This document shows, piece by piece, positions 25,030 to 54,869 of a stretch of DNA of 64,000 nt. The number at the start of each line of letters is the position of its first letter. The stretch's first letter is position 1. This DNA comes from Myxococcales bacterium (GTDB lineage Bacteria > Myxococcota_A > UBA9042 > JABWCM01 > BTVJ01), in the NCBI GenBank assembly GCA_045863395.1, contig BTVJ01000003.1, positions 160,001 through 224,000 on the forward strand. Direction: 5' to 3'. The notes beneath the pieces were generated by a model. It was not told where the DNA came from. It did not search any database and saw only the letters and a program-made list of their open reading frames with translations. The position numbers were made by a program, and so were the translations under genes.

Positions 25030-25830
25030 CTATGTAGAGACCCTTCGATAGGTGTCAAGGTCGATGCTCGAGATCTCGCTCCGAGGAACGAGTTTGTAGT
25101 GGCGCTCGTCCACCATGCGAACATCCTCTCCGTCAATGGTGAGCTCGAACAGGGCGACCAACTGGTCCTCGATGAACTGCGCTCCAACGGGGCGGCAGAT
25201 CAGTGACGGAAATTTCTCCAAGCAGCAGCGAACGTCCTGCTTCGTCTGAACGGCACCGAGTTGGTCCGAGCCTCCCTTGGCCTGAATGGGTATGACGAAC
25301 TGTCTGCCGTGCTTGTCCACGCCCACATAGACTTCGTCAATCTCAATCTGTCCAATCCCTTTGACGGTCGTGCGAAGATGATTCTGGAGAGAGTACGTGG
25401 CAAGACCAAGAAACAGGTCAATCAACCGATTGTATCGAACCACGGCCAGCAGCGCCTGCTCATCCGAAAGGGAGTATTGAGAGATGATCTCGGGAGTGGC
25501 ATTGGGAATCTTGATGGGTTGGAGCAACGGATTAGGCCGGATTCTGTTGATCGGGACCAGACGGAACGTGTAGGTGGAACGGCCGGTGCCCTCGATGACC
25601 CACACCTTTCCTGCGGGCTGCGTTGCAGCGATGGTTGAAGGCATTGCCGTTCGATACCGAATGGAATAGAGGACGTCGCCGAGGTTCTTCGGAAGATCCA
25701 TCCCAAGCGTGGCGGCGGCAGCGACAAGGTCCTGCCGGTGAAAGGGGATGTCCTCGCAGCCGGGTGTGTAGGAGTCCAGGAAGACCCTCTCGATCAATGC
25801 CACATACCGATTCTGAGTGCTGCTACCCAT
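25030..25830 (-). CDS. Type II restriction endonuclease-like protein
   Basis: NRYVALIERVF, PKNLGDVLYSIRYR, QIEIDEVYVG..IPIQAKGG (PD-(D/E)XK-like); overlaps the methylase; lower GC. Confidence 0.7.
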   Translation of the reverse strand: MGSSTQNRYVALIERVFLDSYTPGCEDIPFHRQDLVAAAATLGMDLPKNLGDVLYSIRYRTAMPSTIAATQPAGKVWVIEGTGRSTYTFRLVPINRIRPNPLLQPIKIPNATPEIISQYSLSDEQALLAVVRYNRLIDLFLGLATYSLQNHLRTTVKGIGQIEIDEVYVGVDKHGRQFVIPIQAKGGSDQLGAVQTKQDVRCCLEKFPSLICRPVGAQFIEDQLVALFELTIDGEDVRMVDERHYKLVPRSEISSIDLDTYRRVST

Positions 25831-27163
25831 GTGATGCGTCGCCTGACCTGGTTGACACTTCGATATCAATCTGTCTGCGCTTCGTTGCACCGCTCTTGCG
25901 ATCCCTGCGGGCAATTGGACTCTCGACACACCAATATGCTGCAGCATCCGACACTGACATGGCCAGGAGCGCGGGCGAACCCAAGGTCAGATGTGCCAGG
26001 TCTGCGGGAGTCCGTGACCCGCCGCACAGGCCAACCAGTTGAAGCGCGACAGCCCTCGCAAGAGGGGGAGGTACTGAGTTCCCCACCTGGCGTCCGCCGT
26101 GCCACTTGGTCACGTGAAACCGAAACCAGTCGGGGTAGCCATGGAGGCGAGCCATCTCGCGCACGGTGATGCACCGCGGATGAACGTAGTGAATCGGGCG
26201 AGGGCTGGTGAACGCCCCCCGCGCTGAATCGGTACCCGCACGTAGCTTGTTGGAGACGCCGTCAGCGGTGAGCTTGTAGAAGCGGGAAATGGGCTCGACG
26301 GTGCCAGGGGCCGTTGACGCAAAGCGTCTGCGGGAGATCGCCGAGTGCTCGGTACGCATGCTGGATGTCATGGCTGTACAATCCCAGGAGCGTCTGTGGC
26401 CGTCGTGCCAGGAGGAGTCGGAGAGGCACCGAAGCTCTCTGGAATAGAAAGACGCGGGAGGGACAAGCTCGACTTTGACGGTGTCGGAGTCAACGAGATC
26501 GGGAAACAGGTCAGCGTCGGGCAGGTCCGAAAGAGCATCGCTACACGATGGTCCCAGATCCAAGTCCAGGAGCGAGGAGCCGCGTCGTGGCGGCGGTGAG
26601 GAGACAGAGGGTGGGTAGCTGGGCAGGATACAGCCCTTTCGTGCGCCCATCAGAATCAGCCGCTCTCGATCCTGGGGTACGCCATAGGCACAGGCGTTCA
26701 GCACCTGCCACGGCTTTCGCACAATGTATCCATTCCTCTCAAATGCCAGGACCAACTCCTGCAGGAACTCGCGGTGCTCGCCGAGAGTCAGTCCCTTGAC
26801 GTTCTCGAATACGAAGTAAGAGGGTTCCAACTCGAGCACGATCCGTAGAAATTCACGGACGAGCTGGTTTCGGGGATCGTCCAGGGCTCGCTGGCCCATC
26901 AAGGAGAACCCTTGACACGGGGGACCACCAAAGACGACAGCGACGCCGCGCTTCGCCGCGGACGTTCCCGATACGATGTCTGCACCCGAGAGGCCGACGA
27001 TGGAGCGAGGGACAGTCTTGACGTGCGGAAAGTTGTAGTGGTGAACGGCTGCGTGCACGGGGTCCATCTCGACGGCAGCGACGACGTCGAAACCGGCCTG
27101 CTCGAACCCAAGGGACATGCCCCCAGCGCCTGCAAACAGGTCTATCGCAATGGGGCGCATCAT
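25823..27163 (-). CDS. dcm: DNA (cytosine-5)-methyltransferase
   Basis: IDLFAGAGG, GGPPCQGFS, FENVKG, YGVPQDRER, TVREMARLHGYPD, QVGNSVPP. Confidence 0.95.
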   Translation of the reverse strand: MMRPIAIDLFAGAGGMSLGFEQAGFDVVAAVEMDPVHAAVHHYNFPHVKTVPRSIVGLSGADIVSGTSAAKRGVAVVFGGPPCQGFSLMGQRALDDPRNQLVREFLRIVLELEPSYFVFENVKGLTLGEHREFLQELVLAFERNGYIVRKPWQVLNACAYGVPQDRERLILMGARKGCILPSYPPSVSSPPPRRGSSLLDLDLGPSCSDALSDLPDADLFPDLVDSDTVKVELVPPASFYSRELRCLSDSSWHDGHRRSWDCTAMTSSMRTEHSAISRRRFASTAPGTVEPISRFYKLTADGVSNKLRAGTDSARGAFTSPRPIHYVHPRCITVREMARLHGYPDWFRFHVTKWHGGRQVGNSVPPPLARAVALQLVGLCGGSRTPADLAHLTLGSPALLAMSVSDAAAYWCVESPIARRDRKSGATKRRQIDIEVSTRSGDASHG

Positions 27164-27318
27164 ACCTCCCGCCACGGCTGTGATGCCGTGGTGCTCGCTC
27201 AGACGCCCCTCAAGTAGCATGGCTGGGGCTGCTCGTCAAACGTTCAGTGCGACGCGGGCGGCGTCGCGAGCGCGTGGAGCAGGGCCGGCCGGGCGTCCTT
27301 GAGGCCACGTCGCCGGAC

Positions 27319-36665: not shown

Positions 36666-39479
36666 ATGAGCACGTGGAACGAGATGCGCACCCGCCGGGG
36701 ACCGGGCTCCCCGAGCGGGCGGTTCGGGCGAAGCCTCACCCTCTGTCTTGCGCTCGCGCTCGCAGGCAGCCTCTCCGCCTGCGAAGACGAGGCGGCCTCT
36801 CCAGCGGGCGGGGGCGGGACGGACGCGGGCACGATCACCACGGACACCGGAGGCACGGGGGCAACCGACGGCGGCGGCGGAGGCGGTGGGACGGACGCGG
36901 GCACGATCGCCACGGACACCGGAGGCACGGGGGCAACCGACGGCGGCGGCGGAGGCGGTGGGACGGACGCGGGCACGATCGCCACGGACACCGGAGGCAC
37001 GGGGGCAACCGACGGCGGCGGTGGAGGCGGTGGGACCTCGGACACCGGGAACGGCTGCGCAGATGGGCTCCGGTGGAGCGGCGGGAGCTGCGTGGACATC
37101 GACGAGTGCGCCGAGGGCGGTCACGACTGCGACGCCAATGCGACGTGCACGAACACTCCGGGGGCCTTCACGTGCAAGTGCAAGTCGGGCTTCGGGGGCG
37201 ACGGCAAGACGTGCGTCGAGGGCGCCTGCGACCCCGGCTACAAGAAGAGCGGGTCGGGCTGCGCCGACATCAACGAGTGCAGCGAGGGGCTCCACGACTG
37301 CCACGCCAACGCGTCCTGCACCAACCTGACGGGCTCGTACTCCTGCGCGTGCAAGTCGGGCTACACCGGCGACGGCAAGACGTGCGCCGAGATCCCCTGC
37401 GACCCGGGCTTCAAGAAGAGCGGGACGATCTGCGTGGACATCAACGAGTGCAGCGAGGGCCTCCACGACTGCGACGTGAACGGGACCTGCACCAACTCCA
37501 CCGGGTCGTTCTCGTGCAAGTGCAAGACCGGCTACACCGGCGACGGCAAGACGTGCGCCGAGATCCCCTGCGATCCGGGCTTCAAGAAGAGCGGGACCAT
37601 CTGCGTGGACATCAACGAGTGCACGGAGGGCCTGCACGACTGCGACCCGAACGGGTCGTGCAGCAACATGACGGGATCGTTCACGTGCAAGTGCAAGTCT
37701 GGCTATGAGGGCGACGGCAAGTCCTGCACCGAGATCCCGTGCGCCCCGGGCTACAAGAAGAGCGGCTCGGGCTGCGTGGACATCCACGAGTGCAACGAGG
37801 GGCTGCACGACTGTGACCCGAATGCCTCCTGCTCGAACTCCACCGGCTCCTACTCCTGCAAGTGCAAGACGGGCTATGAGGGAGACGGCAAGAGCTGCGC
37901 GGACATCGACGAGTGCGCCACGGGCACCCACACCTGCGACGCCACGACCTTCTGCAAGAACACGGTGGGCGCCTTCACCTGCGACTGCGCCCCGGGCTAC
38001 TCGAAGGCCGGCTCCAAGTGCTTCGACATCAACGAGTGCCTGGACGGTACTGACGACTGCGTGGCGTGGTGCCAGAACGTTCCGGGATCATTCAACTGCA
38101 TGTCGACGGTGGCGGATGAGACCAGCCCCTACTATACGAAGACCTGCGACCCTGACTTCTCGTTCCACCAGTACAACTGGAAGGGCACGCCGCCCAACGA
38201 GACCTACGAGTACCAGACCAAGCTGATCGCGGACTGCCGGTGCGGCAACAACCGCATGCCCGTGCCGCTTGGCGGCCTGGCCATCTGCCAGAACCCGCTG
38301 GAGCTGCCGATGAGCTACGGGTTCGGGGCGGGCCCGACCATCCGCGAGCTCCCGAACGCGGGCATCCTGGGCGGCACCTTCGACCCGGAGACCCGCCTGA
38401 TGTATGTGGGCATAGAGTGGCAGGGCACCTTCTACGAGGACCAGGGCGCCATCCTGGCCATCGACGCCGACTCGGGCGACCGGACCATCATCTCTGGGCA
38501 GTGGCTGGACCCGGCCAACGGCTACGCGACCTACGGCGAGTCGGACCCGACCGACAAGACCTTCTGGACGGATGACATCATCGGCGGCCCCGCCTACAAG
38601 AACCCGCTCGGGCGCGTGTACCACGTGCGGCTCGGCCAGGACGGGTATCTCTACGCCTTCACCGGGGACAAGGACAACTACGCACACATCGTCCGCGTCG
38701 ACATCGCGACGGGCAACCGGAAGGTCATGTGGACGGAGAAGCGCTTCCTGGACCCGAAGAACCAGAACGAGCCTGCCCACGTCCAGTGCCCGAACGGCAT
38801 GAAGCTCGAAGGGTCCACCACCTGGGCCCAGATCTACGACTACGGCGGCTTCGAGCTCGACGCCAACGGCGACTACCTGGTGACGGTCCTCCAGAACGGC
38901 ACGACCAGCAACATCACGCCCAACGGCATCATTCGCATCAAGAAGGACGGCACGGACTGCCAGTGGGTCACCCGATTCGGCATGGGCACCAACAACGAGT
39001 TCTACGGCCAGACCATCGGTACGGGCCCGCTGGCACAGTTCTCCTTCGACGCGCTGTACCTCCACCAGGGGTTCCTGTACGCCGTGACCTCCAGCAACGC
39101 CATCGCCTTCAAGATCGACCCCACCACGGGCAACCGCACCATCGTCGCCAGCGACGCGGTCGGCACGGGGGCGCTCGTCGGCGTGGACTGGCTGAGCTGG
39201 GACCCGACCCGCAACATCATGTGGACCGGGGGCACGGGAGCGGGGACGACCATCGTCTCCTGGGACCTGGTGACGAACCAGCGGTCGAGCCACATCGGCC
39301 TCAAGGTCGCCAAGCCCAAGCAGTTCCAGACCGCGTCCGGGCCGCTCGACACCTGCTGCATGATCCACCTGCCGGGCTGGGTGGACACCGCCAACGGGCA
39401 CCTGCTCGTCGGCTTCAGCAAGTACGCCATCCTCCGCTTCGAGCCCGAGTCGGGCAACTCCGTCATCCTGTCGCTGTAG
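36666..39479 (+). CDS. Large lipoprotein with 7 calcium-binding EGF-like domains and a beta-rich C-terminal domain
   Basis: LSAC lipobox; DI(D/N/H)EC..C..C.N..G.(F/Y).C.C..G(F/Y).GDG..C repeats; ~460 aa propeller-like tail. Confidence 0.9.
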   Translation: MSTWNEMRTRRGPGSPSGRFGRSLTLCLALALAGSLSACEDEAASPAGGGGTDAGTITTDTGGTGATDGGGGGGGTDAGTIATDTGGTGATDGGGGGGGTDAGTIATDTGGTGATDGGGGGGGTSDTGNGCADGLRWSGGSCVDIDECAEGGHDCDANATCTNTPGAFTCKCKSGFGGDGKTCVEGACDPGYKKSGSGCADINECSEGLHDCHANASCTNLTGSYSCACKSGYTGDGKTCAEIPCDPGFKKSGTICVDINECSEGLHDCDVNGTCTNSTGSFSCKCKTGYTGDGKTCAEIPCDPGFKKSGTICVDINECTEGLHDCDPNGSCSNMTGSFTCKCKSGYEGDGKSCTEIPCAPGYKKSGSGCVDIHECNEGLHDCDPNASCSNSTGSYSCKCKTGYEGDGKSCADIDECATGTHTCDATTFCKNTVGAFTCDCAPGYSKAGSKCFDINECLDGTDDCVAWCQNVPGSFNCMSTVADETSPYYTKTCDPDFSFHQYNWKGTPPNETYEYQTKLIADCRCGNNRMPVPLGGLAICQNPLELPMSYGFGAGPTIRELPNAGILGGTFDPETRLMYVGIEWQGTFYEDQGAILAIDADSGDRTIISGQWLDPANGYATYGESDPTDKTFWTDDIIGGPAYKNPLGRVYHVRLGQDGYLYAFTGDKDNYAHIVRVDIATGNRKVMWTEKRFLDPKNQNEPAHVQCPNGMKLEGSTTWAQIYDYGGFELDANGDYLVTVLQNGTTSNITPNGIIRIKKDGTDCQWVTRFGMGTNNEFYGQTIGTGPLAQFSFDALYLHQGFLYAVTSSNAIAFKIDPTTGNRTIVASDAVGTGALVGVDWLSWDPTRNIMWTGGTGAGTTIVSWDLVTNQRSSHIGLKVAKPKQFQTASGPLDTCCMIHLPGWVDTANGHLLVGFSKYAILRFEPESGNSVILSL
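36816..37036 (+). repeat. 72 bp coding tandem repeat x3 (Gly/Thr linker)
   Basis: GTDAGTI(T/A)TDTGGTGATDGGGGGG starting at 36816, 36888 and 36960. Confidence 0.9.
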
Positions 39480-40252: not shown

Positions 40253-40654
40253 TCAGTCCGTCGTTGGCAACACCCTCACGGTGATCTCCCGGCACCTCGT
40301 GAGGTCGCCGTCGTTGCTCAGATAGGCCGAAGCCTCCCAGGCGATGGCCGTGGCGAGGTGGATGGCGTCGGGAACCTTGAACCCGTACCTTGCGCGGAGG
40401 TCTGTGGCGATGTCCACGACCCGGCGGTCGATCTCGACGGCCGGCAGGCCGCCATCGAACAGCGCGTTGTATCTCTGGACGAGGTCCAAGTCTCCATCCC
40501 GAAGCGGCTTGACTCGGCACTCGATGCGGGTGAGCTGTGACGTGAAGAGCGGAACGGGGTCATAGCCTGCGACGAGCGTTCGTGCAGCCTCGCGTACTTC
40601 AGGCTCCCCTTCCGTCAGATAGATGATGATGCAGGAGTCCAGGTAGACGCTCAT
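40253..40654 (-). CDS. vapC: PIN-domain (VapC-like) toxin
   Basis: VYLDSCIIIY..E, RIECRVKP, PDAIHLATA, SND. Confidence 0.9.
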   Translation of the reverse strand: MSVYLDSCIIIYLTEGEPEVREAARTLVAGYDPVPLFTSQLTRIECRVKPLRDGDLDLVQRYNALFDGGLPAVEIDRRVVDIATDLRARYGFKVPDAIHLATAIAWEASAYLSNDGDLTRCREITVRVLPTTD

Positions 40655-40860
40655 TCAGAGTCCCACGAGTCCCGCGCCTCCCGGAGCTGCTCGTCAATCT
40701 CCCCGCGCGACCGCTGCCCCTGTGGCAGTTGCGCCAGAAGATCGTAGATCGTGCGGGATGCACCACGGATCATCAGTCTCGCGTCATTTGGGGGAGGCAG
40801 GAGCTGCAAGTATGGCCGAGGGGAGCGCGGCTCGATGAATCGCGAGGGCAACGCGGTCAT
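40651..40860 (-). CDS. Putative antitoxin
   Basis: C-terminal RSRGEIDEQLREARDSW motif of PIN-associated antitoxins; ATGA overlaps on both sides. Confidence 0.65.
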   Translation of the reverse strand: MTALPSRFIEPRSPRPYLQLLPPPNDARLMIRGASRTIYDLLAQLPQGQRSRGEIDEQLREARDSWDSE

Positions 40861-41852
40861 TGGACTCTCCCATGAATCAAGGCAGCCAGGTCTGCGCTGG
40901 CGTCCGGGGTCAGGTCAAGGCGGCCCTGCTTGAAGAGTCTGGCCATGGTGGCGTGTTCGTCGACCCACACGAGCCTGTCCTCTAGCCGCAATCCGGCGAA
41001 CCCAGTGTGCTCGAATCGTCTCCGCAGACGCTCTCTGACGAGCTCCGGAGCCTCCGTGCGGCGGTTGACGACTGGCACCACCGTCGGGAGCTGCTGACGA
41101 AGCGCCACGAAGGCCTCCATGGCGGCGAAGAGGTCTGAGCGGTCGGCGCCGGTCACCAGGAATGCACGGACGTCCAGTCGTTGTCCCGAGTCGAGGGACG
41201 GAAAGCCCGTTGGTAGGGGTCTGTGCCCGTGGATGTGCGCGCAGAGCGACAAGACCTCGGTCGCAAAGCCGAAAAGCCCCGGAGACAGGTCGATGACGAC
41301 ATGGGTCGTCTCCGGCATCTGCTCTGCGACACTCGCGAGAATCCAGGCGAACCGCCGGGTCCAGGGCCCCAAGGGCTCCGTCACCGGCAGCCAGGCCAGC
41401 GCTTGTCCGACGTCCCGCGGGAGCGACGACGACGGGAGGTAGGCCACCCCGTCATCGGGATCGGACCTCCAGACGGCGCTCGCGATGAAGCACTCCTGCT
41501 CCGGGTAGGCCCCTCGATAGCCGAGCACATCGTTGAAGAATGGGGGGGGAGGTGCTTCCCCGTCTGTTGCGAGACCCCGGGCGTCACGGGCTGCCAGGGT
41601 CTCTCCCCGCGACATCCAGGCCCCCGTGGGCGGTGCACTCAGGTCCAAGGCACCGGCTGCGGTCCTCATGCTGCGTGGTGCGCACAGGTCGAGACCGTCG
41701 GCGAGCGATGTGCCGGTCAGGTCGCCGTCTACCACGAGCGGACGGCCGCCCGTCGCAGACAGGACCTGTGACAACCCCACAGCCAGCGTCGACTTGCCGA
41801 CGCCGCCCTTGACGGAGCACAGAACCCAGACATGGAGGGGGGGGACGTTCAC
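40857..41852 (-). CDS. ParA/MinD-like P-loop ATPase
   Basis: SVKGGVGKST (deviant Walker A), LVVDGD, VVIDLSPG, VVNR. Confidence 0.85.
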   Translation of the reverse strand: MNVPPLHVWVLCSVKGGVGKSTLAVGLSQVLSATGGRPLVVDGDLTGTSLADGLDLCAPRSMRTAAGALDLSAPPTGAWMSRGETLAARDARGLATDGEAPPPPFFNDVLGYRGAYPEQECFIASAVWRSDPDDGVAYLPSSSLPRDVGQALAWLPVTEPLGPWTRRFAWILASVAEQMPETTHVVIDLSPGLFGFATEVLSLCAHIHGHRPLPTGFPSLDSGQRLDVRAFLVTGADRSDLFAAMEAFVALRQQLPTVVPVVNRRTEAPELVRERLRRRFEHTGFAGLRLEDRLVWVDEHATMARLFKQGRLDLTPDASADLAALIHGRVQ

Positions 41853-44800
41853 TCTATCTGCTCCAAGGCGGCAAGGAGCTGCCGCACTCGAACATCATGC
41901 TGCCAGGGGTCGCGCGTCGCAAGCCCGGCGAGGATGACGCGCGCCTCATCCCGCCCCGCGGGTGGCGCCTCCATTGCCGCAGAGCCGAGCGCCAACGCCA
42001 CGGCGATCCGGTCTCCGCCGTTCTCTGCGACCAGGCGGTCCAGCTCGTCCACCTCGCCAGCGAGCTGGTCGGGACTGGAGCGAGCGGTCGCCAGCAGGTG
42101 ACGTCCGGCAAAAGCCGCCCAGTTGGGGTGCTGTGCCCGAGCCGCAAGCAGGCGGTGCACTCCGGGGTCGACGGGGATCCGGCCCAGGGCGTGGAGCGCC
42201 ACTGACACGGCGAAATGAGCGACATCTCCCAGGGTCTCTGCGCCAGTGCGGTGGAGCACCTCGAGGGCCTCCAGCTCCGAGTCGCTCGCCTCGTCGATGG
42301 CCTGGGCGGCGGCGACGAGCACCACGGGTCTCACGGGATCTGGTGGTGTGTCGGGCAGGTGTTTGGGACGACCGGCGTCCTTCAGCCAGCGCAGGCGGAC
42401 GTCCGGCGCCAGGGAGGCCCACTGGTCGGAGTCCAGCCGCAGGAGGACGAGCATCGCGAGGTCTGGCACCGTGGCGGCGGGGCTCCAGTCGACCACGGCG
42501 TCCGTCCGCCCTCCACGTCGGTGCTCCCGCTCGTCGGGGGTGGGCTCGCGGCTCGCGAGCTCTCGCAGGACGGCCAGCACACCTCGAGTGGCGACGCTGT
42601 GCAGCTCCGCGCCGTCCCGCGACCGGGCCAGCTCTTCAGACGAGCGCAGCGCGTGGAGCACTGCCATCGTCCGAAGCTGGCGCCCCCCGGCGTATCGCGC
42701 CGGGTCCGGGACGTCCGAGCTGTGCGGAGCCCCCCAGGCATCGAGCCCGTGCTCGTCCAGCCGCTGCATGAAGGCCTGCCGGGCCTCGAGAGGAGCTGCA
42801 TCGAGCAGCGTGATGAACCAGGTCGCGAGGCGCCAGGTCAACCACATGCGCTCGCGAGGGGGAGCGTCGGCGCCGGCGAGGCTCTCGACCACCCGCTGGC
42901 ACAGCCGCAGGATCTGAGGCTCGCGCCTCGCGAACCCTGGCTGCGCGCGGCGGGGCAGGGTCGCCGCTGCGTCGCCCGTGGGCGAGGTGGTTGGCACGAG
43001 CGTCCCGATCACGCCCTCCACGAGTCGGGGGAGCTCGGATCTCAGGTCGACCTGGCCGGCGGGGAGGTCCCAGACCGCCTTCTGCGCGGCAGCCGCCCGG
43101 AGCACGACGAGGCTCGCCGAGAGCCACCCCGTCGGGACGGAGTCTGGATCCCTCATGTGTCCGAGGGCCTCGTTGAGCAGCTCTGCGCTCCGCTCGTCCG
43201 CGTCAAGGAGTGTGGCAGACAGGTTCGCCAGCGGTCCCGGGATTCGCGCGAGCATCAGCAGGAGCTCCCACTTGTCGCGGCGATGCGACCAGGCGCCCGT
43301 CGTGAGCCGGTCGCGCAAAATCTCGACGAGGGGGCCGTCCGGTAGGGGACCAGGCTCGGAGAGGATCTGTCGCAGCTCGTCGACGTCTTTCAGCGTCGCG
43401 AAGGGGACGCCCCCGAGCTGCCAGGAGAAGAGCCAGGATGGGTCCTGGCGCATGTGGCGCCACGGGGCGCGCGCGGCCGCCACCGCGGCCGCCTCGAGGC
43501 GCGCGCCATCAGCGGGGTCGCTGGCCGCACCCAGGAACGCATCGTGGAGGCGCCCGTCCAGCGGCCCGAAACGCGCGGCGGCCCAGGTGGCCCATGTCCC
43601 AAGCGCTGAGGCGCCCAGGCGGAGGACGACGGCCTCCGCGGGGACCTCCGCAGCGACCGTCAGGCCCCCGGCGTCCTCATAGGTGAACTGAATGTCCCCG
43701 TCGGCGTCGACGAGCGCCCGAGGCTGTGCTTCCACGAGCGACACACACCGCTGCACGAGCTCCAGGAGCGACACGAACCTCGTCCCACCGTCCCCGCTGA
43801 CGCGCAGCCCGACGCGCTCCAGAGGTTGTTGCTCCCACTGCGAAGAGGCGATGACCAGGGTGGCGAGGGCGCCCCGCGTGAGGGCATGGGGCCCGGTGTC
43901 GGCGGCGAGCGCCAAGGTCGCCTGCTCGAGGCTCACCAGCTCGGGGGGCGGCCCCTCGCCCGAGTCCTGGAGGCGCGGGCCCATTGACACCCAGAGGTCG
44001 GAGAGCGCGCGCTGTGCGGGCTCTCGCCGAGACGGGGCTCCCTGGACCCACCGCCCGATGGCGGTCCACATGCGGCCCGCCGGAGCGTCCATACTGCTCG
44101 CGTAGGCGTCGCCCTCACGCGTGAAGGCGGCGAGGGGGGTGCGCAGGGCTGCCAGGCCGAGGAAGACCAGCAGCGGCTGCGTCAGCGCTCCAGGGTCGGC
44201 GACGCTGGACGGCGGCGCGTCACTAGCGCTGTGTCGCGCCAGCAGGAGCGACTTGCCGGACTCCTCCGCCGTGTCGAGCAGCGCGCGCGTCAGCCTCTCG
44301 GCGGCTTGCAGGTCTGCGCCGTCCGGGAGCCACGTGTCTGCGAGGGCCGCTGCAAACGTCTGCGCCACGAAGAGGACGAGCGGCCCCTGCCCCAGGTGGG
44401 CCCGGCGGAAGGCGGCTGGCACTGCGGCGAGCAGACGCGCGGGTCTGCCCTGATCCAAGGTGGCGTACCGCCTCGCGAGCTCCTTCAGGAGGTCTGAGCC
44501 GAGCGCCTCGATGGTGCCGTGCTCGGCGAGCTGCTCTCGCTTGGGCATGGCCTCGGCCGGGGGGCACAGGCGGTCGACGAGGTCTGGAAGGTGGACCTCG
44601 CGCTTTCGCACGGACGTCCTCTCGTGATGGAGGGTCGAGGCCAACGACGGTAGGGGCGCCAGCGCTCTGGCGGCATCGAGGAGCGCCACCGGATGGAGGG
44701 CGCTGGCGGCGGCCTCCGCCACGAGGATGCGCCTCTGACCATTGCACCACCGCCAGCGTTGAAGCAGCTCCCTCAGATAGTCTGCTGCGAGCGGGTGTCG

Positions 44801-47800
44801 GTCGCGGACCTCCGGGTCATCGAGCTCTGGCACCGGCGGGCGGCTGTCCACGCGGATCCAGCCCTCCTGGCGTCCAAGCTGGAGCCAGGCGCGAAGGTCG
44901 CGGGCCGCGCGGTGCGCCTGAATGGCTAGCCTGTCGCGATCCCACCGGTCATCGATCAACCTCGCCGTCTCGGGGCCCACATGGACTGGAGTTGCGCGTA
45001 CGAGCGCGTCCAGCGCGCCGGCGGCCTCGAATCGCCACAGGGGCGCGTAGCGGAGGACGACGGCGGGCGGGAGCAACCCCGAGGTGGGGCGCCCGTCGCC
45101 GAGCGCGCCTTGGATGATTTGCTCCGCCTGGTCGCGGGGCAAGACCCCCGCAGAGAAGAGGGCGCGGACCAGCGTCGCGGTGGAGAAGGCCCCGCTGGAG
45201 GGCTCGACTGTGTCATCGACGAGCACGGCTCCGAGCTGGATTGCCAGCGCCGTGTCCGAGTCGTCCGGACCCCGGTGAGCCGCGCCGGACGGCCGGTGCC
45301 AGTCGATTCCGGGTGCGTCGCAGGCTCTCGCGCGAATCTTCATCAGCGTGGCGTGCTCGGCGGCCGGTGGGATCTCGATGGCCCGGACGGCCTGCTCGAA
45401 GACGTCCTCGAAGACCACGAGCCTCCAGCCTGGGCGCTGGTCTCGCAGCGCGTCGAGGAGCCCGAGATGGTGCAGCCACAGGATCTCCAGTGCTCCGACC
45501 AGGAGCTCCACCCCGGCGCTCGGGAGCGGATCGCTCTGCGGGTTGGGCAGCGGGGCAGGGTACGTGCCAGGCTCACTGCGCTCAGCGACGAGGTGCGCGA
45601 ACAGCTCCGCCGGAGGCCGCCCCAACGCCGCACAGAGGAGCGAGAAGGGGACCGCTCCCTCGCGCCAGTTCTGCTCGGTGGCGGCGGCGGTGGCCGCACT
45701 CAGCCGAAGGAGGTCGAGCCCCACCTCCGCGGGTATCCGGGTGACGACGTCGCGCTGCGCGAGGGAGTCCATGTCGGGTGGTGGGAGCTCGGCAGGCCAA
45801 TCCAGCGCCGAGCAGACGCGAAAGTAGGCTCCATGCGCGGCTGGGTCCACCGTGGTCGCCAGCTTGTCGTGGAGCGCACGCCCCATGGCGATGAGCGTAG
45901 CCCTCCGGTCGACGCTCCCCGCCATCGCGAGCAGGATCCCGGTCGCGTCCCCGAGCTCCTTCGCGGTCAGCGCTGCCCAGCCTACGTGCCCGGCTCGCAG
46001 GATCGCCGCCTCGGCGTCACGCTCCTGCCCCCGCATCAGGTGCTCCCGGCCGAGCTGGATCCACGCCTGTGGCGAGTCCGTTGCGTCGGCGTAGCGGGTC
46101 CAGCAGGAGACTGCCTCTGCGGGGGCGACGCTGCTGGCCGCCAGGGCCCGTGCCTGGAGCACGTCAGGGCCTGTCTCATGCGCGAACGGAACGAGCAGCT
46201 CCCAGGCGCGCTGCAGGAGGCGGCGCGGCTCCTCTGTGCCGCTCGCCGCGCAGGCCATGGTCACGCCCGCCACCCGACGGAACCGGGAGCACGGGAGAGC
46301 GGCGACGGCAGCCTCCATGTGTGGAACGGCAGCCTGGAGGTCGCCGGCGTGGGTCAGAACCTGAGCAGCGACCCACTCGATGGGGCCACGGCCGGGCCAC
46401 TGGCGCGCCAGCTCCTCTGCGAGCGGACGGGCCTCGTCGGGGTCTCGCTCCGCGACGCTCCCGACGGCCTCCAACCGACGCAGCCACGGATGCACGTCGA
46501 GCCTCGAGCCCAGCTCCGCGTCTGGTGCCGGCTCCTGCGGATACTCCGCCTGGAGGCGCCGGTGCAGCTCGGCGGTGCGCGGGTCCATCGTCAGCCATGC
46601 GTACCGCGTCTCCAGGCTGAGCCGCGCGCCTCTCAGCGGGCCTGGGAGCGTCTCGTCCGGGAGCTCGCGGAGAGACTCCTCGAAGCGGCGGACCACCTCC
46701 GGCCGCTCCGCCACGGGGATGGGCTCCTCCTGAGCGGGGAACTCCAGGACGGTCGCGGAGATGGCACGCAGCAGGCCGTCGAGCGCCGCCAGCCGCCACC
46801 GGGGCAGCGTCTCCTGATCGAGCGCACGCAGCATCAGTCGGGCGGCGGACCAGGCCCTGCCGCGGTCGACGAGGTGCCGTGCAGCAGGGAGCGTGACCAT
46901 CAGCTCGTCTGCGAGCGGCTCGGGCATGCGCCCCTCGGCCAGTGCGAGGAGCTGGCGGGCGAGCGCAACGGCCCCGTCGCCCTGGGCGGGCAGCAGCGCC
47001 CTGGCGCTCTCCAGCTCCCGCACCTGGACCAGCCCCTGCGCCAGGACTCCTCTCCCCTTGTCGTCGAGCGGCTGAGGGTCCACGGCCAGGAGGACCTCTC
47101 GTGCCTCATCGACGCGCTGGAGACAGAGCAGGGAGGAGGCCACGTTGAGGCGCAACGCCTCGGCGTTCCTCCTGGTCTCGGCATCAGCCCTGGAGGGGAG
47201 GGCGTCGACCAGCTCGAGTGCGCGCCGATAGAGGGCAAGCGCTTCCTCGAACCGACCCTCGCCGAAGCGCTGGCGGGCGTCTCGCAGCTCGTGGGGCAGG
47301 TGCGTCACGACGACACGCGCGAGTCGCGTGCCAGAGCGCTGCGCCCGCCGGTCACGGGCCTTCGCGGCCAGCGCCTCGAGGAAGGGCGCGACCTGGTCGA
47401 GCGATGTGAGCCCGATCAGTCGCAAATGGCCGTCTGCCCTCGCCGTGACGAGCCGAGACGTCGGCTCGAGCCAGAACGGTCCAACTCGGTGGCCCTCGAA
47501 GTCAGCCAGGCATCGCGTGATCTCATCGACGAGGTGGGGGTCACCGTAGCCGTATCCGACCAGCAGGACCTGGCCCTGCGTGAGAAAAGCGCTCAACACC
47601 CGCCGCCAGGCCTCGGCATTGTGATACACGCCGCGGAAGTCCGCATGCGTCAGGACGAGGTCGTGGTGGCTCGCTGCGTCGCCGTGCAGCTTCAGCACGT
47701 GACCCACGTCAAACCGGGCGATGCGCTCCACCTCGCTGATGGTGCAGACCTCGGCGGGGCCGCCGCGCTCTCTGAGCGCCCGCTCGAGCAGGCCGTCGTA

Positions 47801-48175
47801 GTTCGTCGTGAGGAACGCGGCCCCCGGCAAGGCAGCCAGCGCCCGATGGGTGATGGTCGGCCGCAGCGTGGGGTCGGAGAAGCGAGCGGCGACCTGAGCC
47901 TTCGCCCAGCCCTCGGGGAGCAGGCTCGCCGCGGTGATCGGATTGCCGCACCTGGCTTCACGGCGCGCTTCTTCGGACGTAGCCGCGTCAAGCAGTCCCG
48001 CGGACTCCGCTTCGTCGGCGAGCTGCTCCACGAGCTCGCGCCACCCCGGAAGCCCGGGGGGCGCGTCGGACTCGGAGTCCGCCCGGGAGGCCCCCGCCCC
48101 CACGACAACCAGCAGGCGGTCCGAGGCCGCGGCGTCGACGAGGTCCTCGGGGATGGGCGGAAGGTCTGGTGTCAC
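41849..48175 (-). CDS. Large SIR2-domain + TPR protein (putative defence effector)
   Basis: VVVGAGAS..LPGW, TTNYD.LLE, LKLHGD, LVLT..DF, VGYGYGDP (SIR2_2-like), followed by TPR-like helices; 2108 aa; CAGGAG RBS upstream. Confidence 0.85.
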   Translation of the reverse strand: MTPDLPPIPEDLVDAAASDRLLVVVGAGASRADSESDAPPGLPGWRELVEQLADEAESAGLLDAATSEEARREARCGNPITAASLLPEGWAKAQVAARFSDPTLRPTITHRALAALPGAAFLTTNYDGLLERALRERGGPAEVCTISEVERIARFDVGHVLKLHGDAASHHDLVLTHADFRGVYHNAEAWRRVLSAFLTQGQVLLVGYGYGDPHLVDEITRCLADFEGHRVGPFWLEPTSRLVTARADGHLRLIGLTSLDQVAPFLEALAAKARDRRAQRSGTRLARVVVTHLPHELRDARQRFGEGRFEEALALYRRALELVDALPSRADAETRRNAEALRLNVASSLLCLQRVDEAREVLLAVDPQPLDDKGRGVLAQGLVQVRELESARALLPAQGDGAVALARQLLALAEGRMPEPLADELMVTLPAARHLVDRGRAWSAARLMLRALDQETLPRWRLAALDGLLRAISATVLEFPAQEEPIPVAERPEVVRRFEESLRELPDETLPGPLRGARLSLETRYAWLTMDPRTAELHRRLQAEYPQEPAPDAELGSRLDVHPWLRRLEAVGSVAERDPDEARPLAEELARQWPGRGPIEWVAAQVLTHAGDLQAAVPHMEAAVAALPCSRFRRVAGVTMACAASGTEEPRRLLQRAWELLVPFAHETGPDVLQARALAASSVAPAEAVSCWTRYADATDSPQAWIQLGREHLMRGQERDAEAAILRAGHVGWAALTAKELGDATGILLAMAGSVDRRATLIAMGRALHDKLATTVDPAAHGAYFRVCSALDWPAELPPPDMDSLAQRDVVTRIPAEVGLDLLRLSAATAAATEQNWREGAVPFSLLCAALGRPPAELFAHLVAERSEPGTYPAPLPNPQSDPLPSAGVELLVGALEILWLHHLGLLDALRDQRPGWRLVVFEDVFEQAVRAIEIPPAAEHATLMKIRARACDAPGIDWHRPSGAAHRGPDDSDTALAIQLGAVLVDDTVEPSSGAFSTATLVRALFSAGVLPRDQAEQIIQGALGDGRPTSGLLPPAVVLRYAPLWRFEAAGALDALVRATPVHVGPETARLIDDRWDRDRLAIQAHRAARDLRAWLQLGRQEGWIRVDSRPPVPELDDPEVRDRHPLAADYLRELLQRWRWCNGQRRILVAEAAASALHPVALLDAARALAPLPSLASTLHHERTSVRKREVHLPDLVDRLCPPAEAMPKREQLAEHGTIEALGSDLLKELARRYATLDQGRPARLLAAVPAAFRRAHLGQGPLVLFVAQTFAAALADTWLPDGADLQAAERLTRALLDTAEESGKSLLLARHSASDAPPSSVADPGALTQPLLVFLGLAALRTPLAAFTREGDAYASSMDAPAGRMWTAIGRWVQGAPSRREPAQRALSDLWVSMGPRLQDSGEGPPPELVSLEQATLALAADTGPHALTRGALATLVIASSQWEQQPLERVGLRVSGDGGTRFVSLLELVQRCVSLVEAQPRALVDADGDIQFTYEDAGGLTVAAEVPAEAVVLRLGASALGTWATWAAARFGPLDGRLHDAFLGAASDPADGARLEAAAVAAARAPWRHMRQDPSWLFSWQLGGVPFATLKDVDELRQILSEPGPLPDGPLVEILRDRLTTGAWSHRRDKWELLLMLARIPGPLANLSATLLDADERSAELLNEALGHMRDPDSVPTGWLSASLVVLRAAAAQKAVWDLPAGQVDLRSELPRLVEGVIGTLVPTTSPTGDAAATLPRRAQPGFARREPQILRLCQRVVESLAGADAPPRERMWLTWRLATWFITLLDAAPLEARQAFMQRLDEHGLDAWGAPHSSDVPDPARYAGGRQLRTMAVLHALRSSEELARSRDGAELHSVATRGVLAVLRELASREPTPDEREHRRGGRTDAVVDWSPAATVPDLAMLVLLRLDSDQWASLAPDVRLRWLKDAGRPKHLPDTPPDPVRPVVLVAAAQAIDEASDSELEALEVLHRTGAETLGDVAHFAVSVALHALGRIPVDPGVHRLLAARAQHPNWAAFAGRHLLATARSSPDQLAGEVDELDRLVAENGGDRIAVALALGSAAMEAPPAGRDEARVILAGLATRDPWQHDVRVRQLLAALEQIE

Positions 48176-51912: not shown

Positions 51913-51952
51913 GCCCGGGACCGGCCGAGCCGGGTGGCACAGGGAGAGAGAC

Positions 51953-53101
51953 GTGGTCGAGCCGCAGAGGCGCTGGTCGGACGAGGTCGCGAGGCACCTG
52001 CTGGCGCCGCTGCTGCGCACGCCCGTCTCCCGGTCGGGGTGGCGCCTCGTGAGCTGGGACGCCGAGCAGGGCATCTGCGTGTCCCTGGCCAAGGGGGACA
52101 CGGTGCTCCTGGTGGAGCTCGAGGACCGAGACGACGCCCGCCCTTGCTTCGACCACACGCGCCTGTTCAACGCCACCGTCCGCCGCCAGTTCCAGGCCAC
52201 GGTCCCGATCACGGACGAGGATCGGGCGGTCACCGACGCGCTGCTCGCCATGGTGCGGCGCCGCGAGGCGGATCTGGAGCTGCCCGAGCGCTCGGTCTCC
52301 AGTCGCCGCACCCACGTGCGGACCATCGAGGTGGACCGGGTGCTCATGCCCGAGGGGCAGGGCCACTACTACCTGAACCCCTACGTGGGCTGCATGATCG
52401 GCTGCTCCTTCTGCTACGTGATGGACCGCGCCGATCTGTCGCGGCGCCTGGAGGGGCTGCCGGCCGTCCCCTGGGGGAGCTGGGTGGACGTCAAGGTGAA
52501 CGCCCCGGACGTACTGAGAGAGGAGCTGCGCCGTCTGCCGCCGGGGCTCGTCCGCATGAGCCCCATCGTCACCGACCCGTACATGCCGCTGGAGCGCAAG
52601 TATCGCGTCACGCGCCAATGCCTGGAGCTGCTGCTGCCGGCGGGGTTCCGCCCCGTGCTCCTGACCCGGGCGGCGCGGGTGGTGGACGACCTGGACCTGC
52701 TCCGGGCGTGGCCCAACGTCGCCGTGGGGCTGTCCATCCCCACCGACGACGACCGCTGGCGCGCCCTGTTCGAGCCCGGCGGCGACCCCATCGAGGAGCG
52801 CTTCGAGGCGCTGGAGGCGCTCGCCGCGGCCGGCGTCAGCACCTTTGCGGTCGTCCAGCCCATGCTCCCCATGGACCCCGAGCGCCTCGCCGCCCGCATC
52901 GGGCCCCTGGCCCGGGCGGTGCGCGTGGACCGCATGCACGACCTCTGGCGCGTCCGGCACCTGTATGAGCAGGGGGGCATCCCCTGGGCTGCTGAGGACG
53001 CGTTCTTCGTGGAGACCGAGGCCGCGCTGCGGGCGAGCTTCGCGAGGCAGGGGGTTCCCGTCGACGACCTGGACGATCTGGCGCCGCTGGTGGCCGGGTG
53101 A
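51953..53101 (+). CDS. Radical SAM protein, SplB/spore-photoproduct-lyase-like family, with N-terminal extra domain
   Basis: LNPYVGCMIGCSFCY, VDVKVNAP, TDPYMPLERKYRVTRQCL, FEPG..ER. Confidence 0.85.
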   Translation: MVEPQRRWSDEVARHLLAPLLRTPVSRSGWRLVSWDAEQGICVSLAKGDTVLLVELEDRDDARPCFDHTRLFNATVRRQFQATVPITDEDRAVTDALLAMVRRREADLELPERSVSSRRTHVRTIEVDRVLMPEGQGHYYLNPYVGCMIGCSFCYVMDRADLSRRLEGLPAVPWGSWVDVKVNAPDVLREELRRLPPGLVRMSPIVTDPYMPLERKYRVTRQCLELLLPAGFRPVLLTRAARVVDDLDLLRAWPNVAVGLSIPTDDDRWRALFEPGGDPIEERFEALEALAAAGVSTFAVVQPMLPMDPERLAARIGPLARAVRVDRMHDLWRVRHLYEQGGIPWAAEDAFFVETEAALRASFARQGVPVDDLDDLAPLVAG

Positions 53102-53153
53102 GTGGGACTGTCCGGCGGACGCGGGCAGGGGCGCTGGGGCTCGCGGTGCCCCC

Positions 53154-54869
53154 GTGAAGTGCCTCATCGAGCTGGGGGACCGGTGCAACGACCGCTGCGC
53201 CTTCTGCGCCGTCGTCGGGGAGCCGCTCCTCGACGAGGAGACCGTCGGGCGCCACATCGACCGGGCCGCCGAGCTCGGGTGCTCCATGGTGGTGCTCGGC
53301 GGTGGGGAGCCCACCATCCGCCCCGATCTGCTGCGCCTGGCGTCCCGGGTCGCCGCCCGCGGCATGGACCTGGGGCTCCACACCAACGGGCGCATGCTCG
53401 CGGTGCCGGGGCTGCTCGAGCGCCTCTGCGCGCGGCGGCTGCGGCACGTCCAGGTGGGCGTACATGGCCTCGGGGCCGCCCACGACGCCATCGTGGGGGA
53501 GATTGCGTTCGCGCAGACCTGGGCGGGGCTCGTCGCCGCCGCCCGCCATGTCGCTGTGGACGTGCGGTGCGTGGTCACGGACCGGAGCGGTGACCTCGGG
53601 GCGCTCGTGCGGGCCGCCGAGGTCGCCGGCGCGCGGGTCACGCTCGCGCCCGTGGAGCCCGTGGGGGCGGCCTCCACCGCGATGCTGCACCCCGTGGAGG
53701 CCGCGCGCCGGATCCGCGAGGCGCTGGAGGGCACGGGCGCCCTGCACGCGGGGGTGCCGCTGTGCCTGCTGCCGGGGCTCGAGCACCGCGGCACCGACGC
53801 GCGTGCGCGCGGGGTCGCCTACGTCGCCCGGCACGAGCTGCGGGCCCTCGCCGAGGATCGCGTCCAGCCGCCGCCATGTACGGACTGCGCGCTGCGTGGC
53901 CGCTGCCCGGGGCTCCACCCCGAGGATCTGCGGCGCTGGGGGGCCGACATGCTCCGGCCCGTGCGCGGCGAGCGCTCCAACTCCTTCCACCTGACGCCCA
54001 GGGGCGAGCTCCCGTGGCCGGATGGCGCGCCCTGCCCGCTGCTGCGACGAGGCGTGGGCGCGCTGGACCCGCTGCGCCAGGCGCTGCTGCGGACAGCAGG
54101 GCGCCTCGTGCTCCACGAGACGCGCACCCGGGACTTCGCTCCAGCGGAGCTGGGTGCCGTCCGCGCCCGCGGGCAGCTCTACCTGGACGCGAGCGACAAG
54201 GAGGCCCCCGACGACTTCGCGACGGACCTGCGCAAGCTGGCCCCCGACCCGGCGTGTCCGCCGTGCCCGCTCCGCTCCGGCTGCCCCGGCGCGTGGTGCG
54301 TCCTCCCCGGCGACGTGTTCGGGCCCGACGACGCGGTGGTGGCGCGGACCGTGGCGTCCCTGCGGGGTGACGTCCTGGACGTGGGGTGCGGCGACGGCCG
54401 CTACGGGGACGCCCTCGCGCCGCTCGTCGCCTCGGGCGCCATCCGCTATCGGGGCCTCGACCCGGACGGCGCGCGCATCGCCGGCCTCCGCGAGCGCTGG
54501 CCATGGGCCACCCTGGAGGTCGCCTGCGCCGAGGACGTGCCCCTGGACCCCGCGAGCCTGGACCACGCCCTGCTCCTGCGGAGCTGGAACCACCTGGCGG
54601 ATCCGCGCGCCGTCGTCGAGCGCCTGCTCGCGGCGCTGCGCCCGGGCGGGACCCTCCTCGTCGCGGACAACGTGGCCTTCGGGCTGCTACGGACCCCAGC
54701 CCAGGCAGCACGGGCGGAGGCCGGAGGCGCCGCCTTCGAGCACTGGCGCAACGACGGTGCGGCGGAGGCGGCGGCGCGCCTCGTGGGGCTCCCCCTGCGA
54801 GAGCTGCTGCGACGCGAGGTCGGCCCCGGGACCAGCAACCAGTGGGTCCTGCGGTGGGAGCGCGCCTGA
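53154..54869 (+). CDS. Radical SAM + two SPASM-like Cys clusters + class I SAM methyltransferase fusion
   Basis: CNDRCAFC, GGEPT, TNG; CTDCALRGRCPG; CPPCPLRSGCPG; VLDVGCGDG..LRPGGTL. Confidence 0.85.
   Translation: MKCLIELGDRCNDRCAFCAVVGEPLLDEETVGRHIDRAAELGCSMVVLGGGEPTIRPDLLRLASRVAARGMDLGLHTNGRMLAVPGLLERLCARRLRHVQVGVHGLGAAHDAIVGEIAFAQTWAGLVAAARHVAVDVRCVVTDRSGDLGALVRAAEVAGARVTLAPVEPVGAASTAMLHPVEAARRIREALEGTGALHAGVPLCLLPGLEHRGTDARARGVAYVARHELRALAEDRVQPPPCTDCALRGRCPGLHPEDLRRWGADMLRPVRGERSNSFHLTPRGELPWPDGAPCPLLRRGVGALDPLRQALLRTAGRLVLHETRTRDFAPAELGAVRARGQLYLDASDKEAPDDFATDLRKLAPDPACPPCPLRSGCPGAWCVLPGDVFGPDDAVVARTVASLRGDVLDVGCGDGRYGDALAPLVASGAIRYRGLDPDGARIAGLRERWPWATLEVACAEDVPLDPASLDHALLLRSWNHLADPRAVVERLLAALRPGGTLLVADNVAFGLLRTPAQAARAEAGGAAFEHWRNDGAAEAAARLVGLPLRELLRREVGPGTSNQWVLRWERA

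Follow-up and report, generated by a model that had tools for sequence, protein, structure and literature searches.

A giant SIR2-TPR-PIN-fold protein and a dedicated ParA-family ATPase form a two-gene unit with exchangeable effectors in myxobacteria-like organisms

In the present study, the conserved unit of a cassette from a Myxococcales bacterium has been found to consist of two genes, encoding a giant protein and a dedicated ParA/MinD-family ATPase, and not of the four genes that lie together at this locus. The C-terminal module of the giant, rather than its SIR2, TPR or PIN part, travels with ParA, and known conflict parts are assembled around this previously undescribed module-ParA core. 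It is highly likely that the cassette is a conflict system of some kind. We hypothesize that it works as a ParA-gated abortive-infection receptor/NADase, horizontally spread in myxobacteria-like organisms, a reading to which we give about half of the weight. The window referred to below is the whole stretch of DNA analysed, 64,000 nucleotides in length, and its cassette comprises the following genes.

40253..40654, minus strand: VapC-like PIN toxin, second gene of the variable slot (133 aa; PF01850, E 4e-15)
40651..40860, minus strand: putative antitoxin, first gene of the variable downstream slot (69 aa; named from size and position)
40857..41852, minus strand: ParA/MinD (SIMIBI) family ATPase (331 aa; Pfam CbiA/ParA)
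41849..48175, minus strand: giant SIR2-TPR-HTH-PIN-PIN-C-terminal helical module protein (2108 aa; GTG start, AGGAG upstream)

The conserved pair and its variable downstream slot

The first-pass annotation had described four minus-strand genes joined by 4-nt overlaps, and both the open reading frames and the overlaps (GTGA, ATGA and ATGA) were recovered. Each of the four genes is single-copy in the genome. The GC3 of the cassette (0.74-0.85) is lower than that of most flanking genes (0.92-0.96), which suggests acquisition. The neighbouring genes encode a kinase, an EGF-repeat protein, an MBL hydrolase and an oxidase; judged by these genes, no defence island was present around the locus, and no sigma-70 promoter, terminator or meaningful repeats were found at it. 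RNA-library contigs from three studies overlap parts of the cassette but equally cover all flanks and were therefore not counted as a sign of cassette transcription; no credible empty-site joint was observed among them.

Altogether, 34 loci were examined, and 26 were retained after removal of three without a family ParA (L175 and L182, which carry the same frameshifted giant, and L181, which ends at a contig edge), three with less than 250 nt upstream and two duplicating L020. The partner gene ends within 20 nt of the ParA domain in 24 of these 26 loci, comprising 16 giants and eight short partners. The exceptions are L019, with a 5'-truncated ParA remnant in a genome without a giant match, and L095, in which an intact family ParA adjoins a LuxR-type gene. 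Partner matches were observed in 0 of 139 loci of other ParA proteins, in a comparison whose partner profiles were partly built from the same loci, so that the scores are not independent. The co-occurrence of ParA with large effector-TPR proteins, which had been proposed as a check, was thus borne out by the 16 giant loci. In searches that started from the giant, ParA was the next gene in five of the six new loci with downstream DNA (one of the five being L020 again), and the exception was frameshifted. ParA stays directly downstream across giants of only about 25-30% identity, with both flanking slots replaced. Moreover, the identities of ParA and of the C-terminal module are correlated across 15 giant loci (rho 0.85; reached in 0 of 5000 permutations), which shows that the two are inherited jointly. 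Agreement of the trees also follows from plain co-transfer, and joint inheritance is no proof that ParA and the module bind each other.

The two genes after ParA had been annotated as an antitoxin and a PIN toxin belonging to the system. The PIN part of this assignment stands: like type II VapBC toxin-antitoxin systems, the 133-aa protein of the window has a PIN domain with four acidic residues, D6, E45, D96 and D115, at the canonical positions. The 69-aa product has no family match in Pfam, PADLOC or NCBIfam and is a putative antitoxin by size and position. A fixed four-gene operon with this pair as a constant part was rejected, since unrelated genes take the place after ParA at other loci. 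The slot is conserved, and its occupant changes from locus to locus: four unrelated PIN-toxin pairs (the window, L011, L012 and L014), Uma2 nucleases (L016, L018 and L173), an HNH pair (L017), a weakly matching HEPN-like pair (L176), a protein of about 160 aa together with a His...Cys protein that is presumably permuted papain-like (L013, L015, L020, L179 and L180), and genes without assignment (L177 and L093). The VapBC-like pair of the window is one such occupant.

The eight loci of a short clade consist of a partner of 550-690 aa, truncated by a contig end in two of them, followed by ParA and a protein of about 160 aa, with a metallo-beta-lactamase-fold enzyme in the seven loci where that position is visible. 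The short partner aligns with aa 1628-2108 of the window giant (hhalign 98.2%, E 3e-14, 433 columns); that is, this region exists as a stand-alone ParA partner of about 650 aa. Because the partner is essentially the C-terminal module alone in 8 of the 24 linked loci, the module and ParA form the core of the system. A clade that keeps these two without N-terminal effector, TPR or PIN would also fit a different division of labour, in which ParA and the C-terminal module are the first-line defence, coating or mis-segregating phage or plasmid DNA, and SIR2 and the downstream toxin are back-up killers. Giants without an effector or with a degenerate one exist, and the same model has been proposed for other ParA systems (in the available part of Li, Burroughs, Aravind, bioRxiv 10.64898/2026.10.19.760177). 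However, a nuclease or toxin lies downstream at nearly every locus and the catalytic motifs are kept in 29 of 37 SIR2 members, and we consider such a DNA-directed role unlikely.

The ATPase had been called ParA-like, in agreement with its Pfam CbiA/ParA match and its KGGVGKS and DxD motifs; it has one Walker B Asp. A family search of proteins of 182-580 aa found 126 at E<=0.001 among 8000 scored. The 120 of them listed, apart from the window's own protein, show 30-51% identity, mostly over their length, and the window ParA belongs to a distinct family of its own. A PDC-M28B, Mrp, MinD or BcsQ identity was rejected, the likeness being confined to the Walker A region and far below the NCBIfam cut-offs. 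In 77 aligned rows, S13, G16, G17, V18, G19, K20, S21, D44 and D188 are invariant, while K15 is present in 75, N263 in 76 and T46 in 67, Q not being among the four commonest letters at the last position. The first Walker B Asp is Asp in 67 of the 77 rows and His in the window copy, and the sensor-1 region of the family reads D-x-D-L-T-G. ParA is 289-380 aa long in the 24 loci, and a ParA domain was found in 0 of 151 giants.

Among 401 genomes from the phylum of the window, the giant core matched in 3 and ParA in 4, with only two to five candidates scored per genome; in two myxobacterial orders the giant core matched in 7 of 301 and 1 of 201 genomes. A search of plasmids with the giant gave 43 records, none covering 80%, and in the 15 listed the match is confined to SIR2. 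One locus was observed in viral contigs. The named ParA hosts are myxobacteria (Myxococcus, Sorangium, Byssovorax and Polyangiaceae), and the further hosts are unclassified Deltaproteobacteria or proteobacteria MAGs. With such hosts, and with stand-alone ParA-family ATPases such as McdA, ParC and PomZ commonly positioning cargo, ParA might have no part in defence and might instead position a large protein complex for signalling or developmental cell death. This is very unlikely in our view, since the rare and patchy presence, the fast divergence, the lower GC3 and the exchange among NADase, phosphoesterase, nucleosidase, protease and nuclease domains are unlike a housekeeping role.

Architecture of the giant protein and exchange of its effectors

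The giant is divided into the following parts, all on the minus strand.

47351..48133, minus strand: SIR2 domain, ThsA/DSR2-like, variable effector slot (aa 15-275; Pfam and ThsA alignment)
45806..47308, minus strand: TPR solenoid, predicted sensor (aa 290-790; Pfam TPR matches)
45581..45718, minus strand: HTH-like helical unit ahead of the PINs (aa 820-865; conservation, modelled helices)
45146..45520, minus strand: PIN fold 1 (aa 886-1010; structural neighbours, conserved E897)
44561..45070, minus strand: PIN fold 2 (aa 1036-1205; T-A-D/E motif conserved at 1152-1154)
41852..44305, minus strand: C-terminal helical module (aa 1291-2108; model, conservation)

An N-terminal SIR2 domain with intact motifs and TPR-like helices had been noted in the first-pass annotation, and both were confirmed. 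SIR2_2 matches aa 120-241 (Pfam, E 2e-20), and the motifs are GAGAS at 26, TNYD at 124, KLHG at 162 and GYGYGD at 207, with N125 and H164 as the residues of catalytic type. The TNYD/HG motifs align with the TTNYD and HG of ThsA (E 4e-12), and the GAGxS, TxNYD, HG and GY motifs of ThsA/DSR2-type SIR2 NADases are all present. Among the 37 SIR2-type relatives, both motifs are kept in 29 and one or both are missing in 8. TPR matches lie at aa 299-336, 574-628 and 702-728; the TPR region shows low conservation between relatives, and the solenoid is predicted to act as the sensor. The giant had been said to hold no NTPase motif, and accordingly neither a Walker A pattern (motif scan) nor a P-loop Pfam family was found in it. 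Membrane anchoring was rejected, the best hydropathy window being 1.6.

Two segments had been noted as weakly recalling degenerate PIN domains. They start at aa 890 and 1039, each where a strand followed by a helix begins in the confident model of this region (aa 780-1290; pLDDT 88), and the strand pattern of this model fits two PIN folds. In VIA-align, PIN domains ranked highest (best Z 7.0, rmsd 3.3, 119 residues) and PIN or VapC was named in 14 of the top 29 titles; at a Z below 8, the strength of the match lies in the consistency of the neighbours. Foldseek with the same region returned no significant match. The first catalytic Asp is missing from both folds: at this position of PIN 1, Gly occurs in 74 and Ser in 39 of 121 rows and Asp is not among the six commonest letters, with E897 present in 113 rows, and in PIN 2 the first Asp is not conserved, with D or E at 1154 in 120 of 121 rows. 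From these residues, we infer that both PIN folds are inactive or non-canonical nucleases that retain a binding pocket. In 25 of 121 members, a deletion has removed the second half of PIN 1 and the first half of PIN 2, so that the remaining halves are joined. The HTH-like unit carries the family motif YRxGxLxFxxLC, and the Atlas points from it to PF24407 clusters as a lead (score 0.86). When proteins of 509-2000 aa were searched by words with the HTH-PIN alignment, none matched, which is weak evidence. The C-terminal module of about 820 aa is the best conserved part of the giant. Its confident model (819 aa; pLDDT 83, pTM 0.85) predicts a helical solenoid without a specific structural match: whole-model fold searches gave generic HEAT/ARM and designed repeats only (best Z 8.2), Foldseek gave karyopherin/HEAT rows only at a TM of about 0.2, and an Atlas search gave no coherent family.

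A profile of aa 780-1960 matched 273 representatives at E<=0.001 and 193 at 1e-30 (50% clustering). N-terminal labels falling into twelve classes were assigned to 107 of 151 proteins, the remaining 44 being fragments or without a clear N-terminal label. The large classes are SIR2 (37), C-N hydrolase-like (30) and calcineurin-like (17), followed by EAD-type adaptor (5), none (5), CHAT or TIR-CHAT (3), PNPase (2), EAD1 with degenerate SIR2 (2), DUF4062-like (2), degenerate SIR2-like (2), caspase (1) and NACHT (1), several of the small classes having been labelled by eye. For representatives, Pfam matches were above the cut-off for calcineurin, PNPase, EAD1, TIR and DUF4062 and below it for caspase, NACHT and EAD5. 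The C-N hydrolase label comes from motifs and weak PADLOC matches and not from Pfam, FPE being present in 29 and CxD in 26 of the 30 members; these motifs presumably represent the C-N hydrolase triad. The N-terminal classes are typical conflict effectors. Loci were observed for the SIR2, C-N hydrolase, EAD1-degenerate-SIR2 and TIR-like giant types only. The swapping of effectors, also proposed earlier as a check, is visible on the C-module tree of 94 labelled proteins, which requires at least 27 label changes, compared with a possible minimum of 11 and a shuffled mean of 49.5. Thus, effectors partly follow clades and have been swapped repeatedly. Five members of about 1800 aa begin without a recognisable effector, and NACHT or AAA modules are rare in relatives and N-terminal only.

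Comparison with known systems

A precedent that the first-pass annotation did not name has to be added. The TPR-GreA/B-C-PIN proteins, which have 13 swappable effectors and are mostly stand-alone genes (Kaur et al. 2021, PMC8195603, in its available part), resemble the N-terminal half of the giant. A variable N-terminal effector (SIR2, PNPase, TIR and EAD, with calcineurin in the PMC8195603 table) is common to both, as are TPRs, then a helical unit, then a PIN region, in the same order. A weak likeness extends to the top three Atlas clusters of the HTH-PIN region (0.87-0.89), which serve as leads, and to a Deinococcus member listed in PMC8195603, with which this region is colinear (hhalign E 0.013; 7.0 bits, 1 of 200 shuffles higher). 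PF20698, which together with PF24407 represents TPR-GreA/B-C-PIN in Pfam, matched below its cut-off in 2 of 23 giant members (best E 0.0018) and was absent in the window giant; in 201 genomes of the phylum, PF20698 matched none and PF24407 one, below the cut-off. The Deinococcus reference, searched in plasmids, matched itself only.

Several differences were observed as well. The window giant has no GreA/B-C before the HTH; the model of aa 780-888 has no strand of three or more residues, and the TPRs reach 728. In the Deinococcus member, a beta-rich unit that we take by eye to be GreA/B-C lies just before the helix aligning to giant aa 819. Pfam also misses GreA/B-C in this control, so that absence in Pfam is no test. 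Unlike in TPR-GreA/B-C-PIN proteins, the first PIN Asp is lost in the giants, which continue for about 900 aa beyond PIN 2, including the extra C-terminal module, and the module profile finds no match in the Deinococcus member. Among the effectors of the giants, C-N hydrolase is a major one, whereas 'nitrilase' has 0 matches in the PMC8195603 table. The same table has one TM+SIR2+TPR+PIN+PIN+TM row, of 2304 aa and with no neighbour annotated, and its Sorangium and Myxococcus rows are of another system. A dedicated ParA gene follows the giant at 16 loci, whereas the TPR-GreA/B-C-PIN genes of PMC8195603 mostly stand alone. In view of the weak colinear similarity to such proteins, the giant might act alone as an auto-inhibited effector-TPR-PIN protein, with ParA and the downstream pair as passengers or a separate addiction cassette; one ParA-less giant exists, and co-transfer would explain the tree agreement. 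However, the ParA-less copy is frameshifted, ParA is kept downstream despite the divergence of the giants and the replacement of both flanking slots, and the module that tracks ParA is the very one missing from TPR-GreA/B-C-PIN. We regard a giant acting alone as quite unlikely.

The first-pass annotation knew of no stand-alone ParA partner for a SIR2 domain, but a survey of 28 immune ParA systems includes a ParA-sirtuin pair, along with TA-ParA and APE (10.64898/2026.10.19.760177, available part). In this survey, ConB1 couples ParA to a sirtuin gene, and in ConB2 ParA goes with captured TA units whose toxins are of the C-N hydrolase, REase or papain-like type. The coupling of ParA to a sirtuin or other effector is common to ConB1 and the window family, and the toxin types of ConB2 are also found around window-family ParA. 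The comparison of ParA motifs uses the definitions in the available survey text. PriB1-type ParA of ConB1 has N starting Walker A and Q two after DxD, whereas the window family has S13 in 77 of 77 rows and lacks the Q; in ConB2 and APE, R replaces the Walker A lysine and sensor-1 is followed by PG, whereas the window family has K20 in 77 of 77 rows and D-x-D-L-T-G. The KGGVGR model gave 27 bits on the window ParA against a cut-off of 90. By motif, the window ParA thus fits neither immune ParA clade of the survey. In addition, ConB2 ParA is fused to a C-terminal sensor, whereas window-family ParA is stand-alone (among the 182-580-aa proteins searched) and its predicted sensor is encoded by a separate upstream gene of 1700-2500 aa. 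The APE layout, with a helical partner, then ParA, then a variable effector, is nearest to the short clade; its ParA is of the ConB2 type, and the partner there folds as an alpha-alpha toroid and carries a long charged helix. For the window module, searched as a whole, the matches were HEAT/ARM-like. A giant TPR-double-PIN partner is not described among the immune ParA systems in the available part of the survey.

The SIR2 domain is homologous to those of DSR2, Thoeris ThsA, SIR2-HerA and SIR2-bearing Avs, the likeness being limited to aa ~1-245. DSR2 and Avs couple SIR2 to large helical sensors, and SIR2-HerA pairs SIR2 with a separate ATPase. Membership in Dsr1, Dsr2 or ThsA was rejected, SIR2 alone being shared and the NCBIfam Dsr1/Dsr2 scores being 11-22 against a cut-off of 1400. 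No SLOG/Macro, STAND or HerA domain was detected in the giant; Avs proteins have a central STAND NTPase in the same chain, whereas the giant has no such ATPase motif or family. The PIN systems of DefensePredictor differ from the window system (PMC13092281, available part). The system is not named by any of the PADLOC, NCBIfam or Pfam profiles, those of PADLOC and NCBIfam recognising just the SIR2 domain and the Walker A region, and the giant-ParA pairing was found without description in the literature searched, with subscription papers mostly outside its scope. The composition proposed for the operon has to be corrected, the constant core being ParA and the C-terminal module, which also occurs without SIR2, TPR or PIN.

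Proposed mechanism and meaning

Herein, we propose that the cassette probably serves bacteria as a suicide system against viruses: a giant sensor carries an interchangeable toxic enzyme, and its own ATP-driven switch is nearly always encoded next to it. We infer ParA-module binding, NADase activity and a role in defence. The ATPase would dock on the C-terminal module and keep the giant off in one nucleotide state. Sensing might occur through binding of a phage protein to the TPRs, or of invader nucleic acid to the HTH and the pseudo-PIN pair. This would then flip the ATPase cycle, the giants would cluster, and the clustered SIR2 domains would destroy NAD+, so that the cell stops or dies. ParA may play in trans the part that belongs, in Avs proteins, to a STAND NTPase acting in cis, and the downstream VapBC-like pair may be a second effector or an addiction module.

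The ParA-gated reading is argued for by the linkage, the agreement of ParA and module distances, the effector swapping and the near-invariant ATPase motifs, together with the ThsA-like SIR2 motifs, the patchy spread, the lower GC3 and the short clade that retains module and ParA. Other observations speak against it: L095 has a family ParA with other neighbours, the frameshifted giant of L175 and L182 has no ParA, 8 of 37 SIR2 members are motif-deficient, five giants are effector-less, the window ParA has a Walker B His, there is no defence island, the related TPR-GreA/B-C-PIN proteins mostly act alone (PMC8195603, available part), and plain co-transfer also yields tree agreement. More tentatively, and with some doubt, the module and ParA may be an undescribed NTP switch that serves as a universal socket for N-terminal and downstream killers, forming an NLR-like receptor with a separate SIMIBI ATPase whose tandem pseudo-PINs sense RNA and do not cut it.

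If the ParA-gated reading is true, a family of effector-swapping immune receptors would be added for myxobacteria, multicellular bacteria with little-tested defences. The two-gene system would allow a direct test of the predicted immune-switch role of ParA, with an NAD+ read-out and single-residue controls on both sides. Moreover, the natural series of full giant, collapsed PIN and module only would serve to dissect the sensing from the switching parts.

Altered and displaced copies of the giant and its ParA

Among the loci examined, the following carry a giant of this family or its dedicated ParA-family ATPase in altered form or setting.

L011 466-5715: SIR2 giant without most of the HTH-PIN region; SIR2, C-terminal helical module and ParA kept
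L013 1477-6081: SIR2 giant without the TPR region; SIR2, C-terminal helical module and ParA kept
L095 781-2342 with its downstream region: family ParA that is intact and has a 175-aa LuxR-HTH gene as its upstream neighbour
L175 2795-9728 (= L182): frameshifted C-N-hydrolase-type giant without ParA, within an IMG/VR viral contig

The giants of L011 and L013 are natural deletion variants. Five giants of ~1800 aa (P0199, P0210, P0218, P0225 and P0235) are effector-less and begin with the TPRs, and the P0178 giant is fused with an IS66 transposase. The genome containing the frameshifted L175 giant also carries an intact giant-ParA copy (L176). In L095, several hexapeptide-repeat-like ORFs adjoin ParA on the opposite strand and the surroundings look phage-like by eye; speculatively, this ParA is possibly a captured decoy of the giant-ParA system.

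Neighbouring genes

L013 7577-8266 and L015 11448-12200: recurrent pair after ParA, ~160-aa plus ~235-aa protein; also in L020, L179 and L180
Window 25030-27235: low-GC pair, C-5 cytosine methylase (Pfam E 1e-60) plus 318-aa ORF, ~13 kb from the studied locus
Window 36668-39479: gene for a secreted protein carrying EGF-like Cys repeats in tandem (by eye)
Window 51950-54869: radical-SAM-like gene pair (by eye)

The recurrent pair, whose ~235-aa member has invariant HxG and TCAxF motifs, gave no match in Pfam or PADLOC and is a candidate new TA pair. Beyond it in L015 (12234-15798) lie an 8-oxoguanine glycosylase-like gene and, by eye, a QueC-like gene on the opposite strand. The methylase and the 318-aa ORF, which matched no family, probably constitute a restriction-modification unit. 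The EGF-repeat protein and the radical-SAM-like pair are unrelated to the giant-ParA finding.

A short four-gene clade, and large ORFs near family loci

L022-L025, L098-L100 and L174: ~650-aa helical partner, ParA, ~160-aa beta-rich protein and metallo-beta-lactamase-fold enzyme
L099 3876-8525 and L173 11946-14162: large NTPase-containing ORFs close to family loci, defence-like by eye

Divergent genes next to two short-clade loci (L098 2279-7025 and L100 2048-4729) resemble, as judged by eye, GTPase-centred ternary conflict systems. The short clade itself is a candidate separate system in its own right and, being smaller than the giant system, offers the smaller one for testing.
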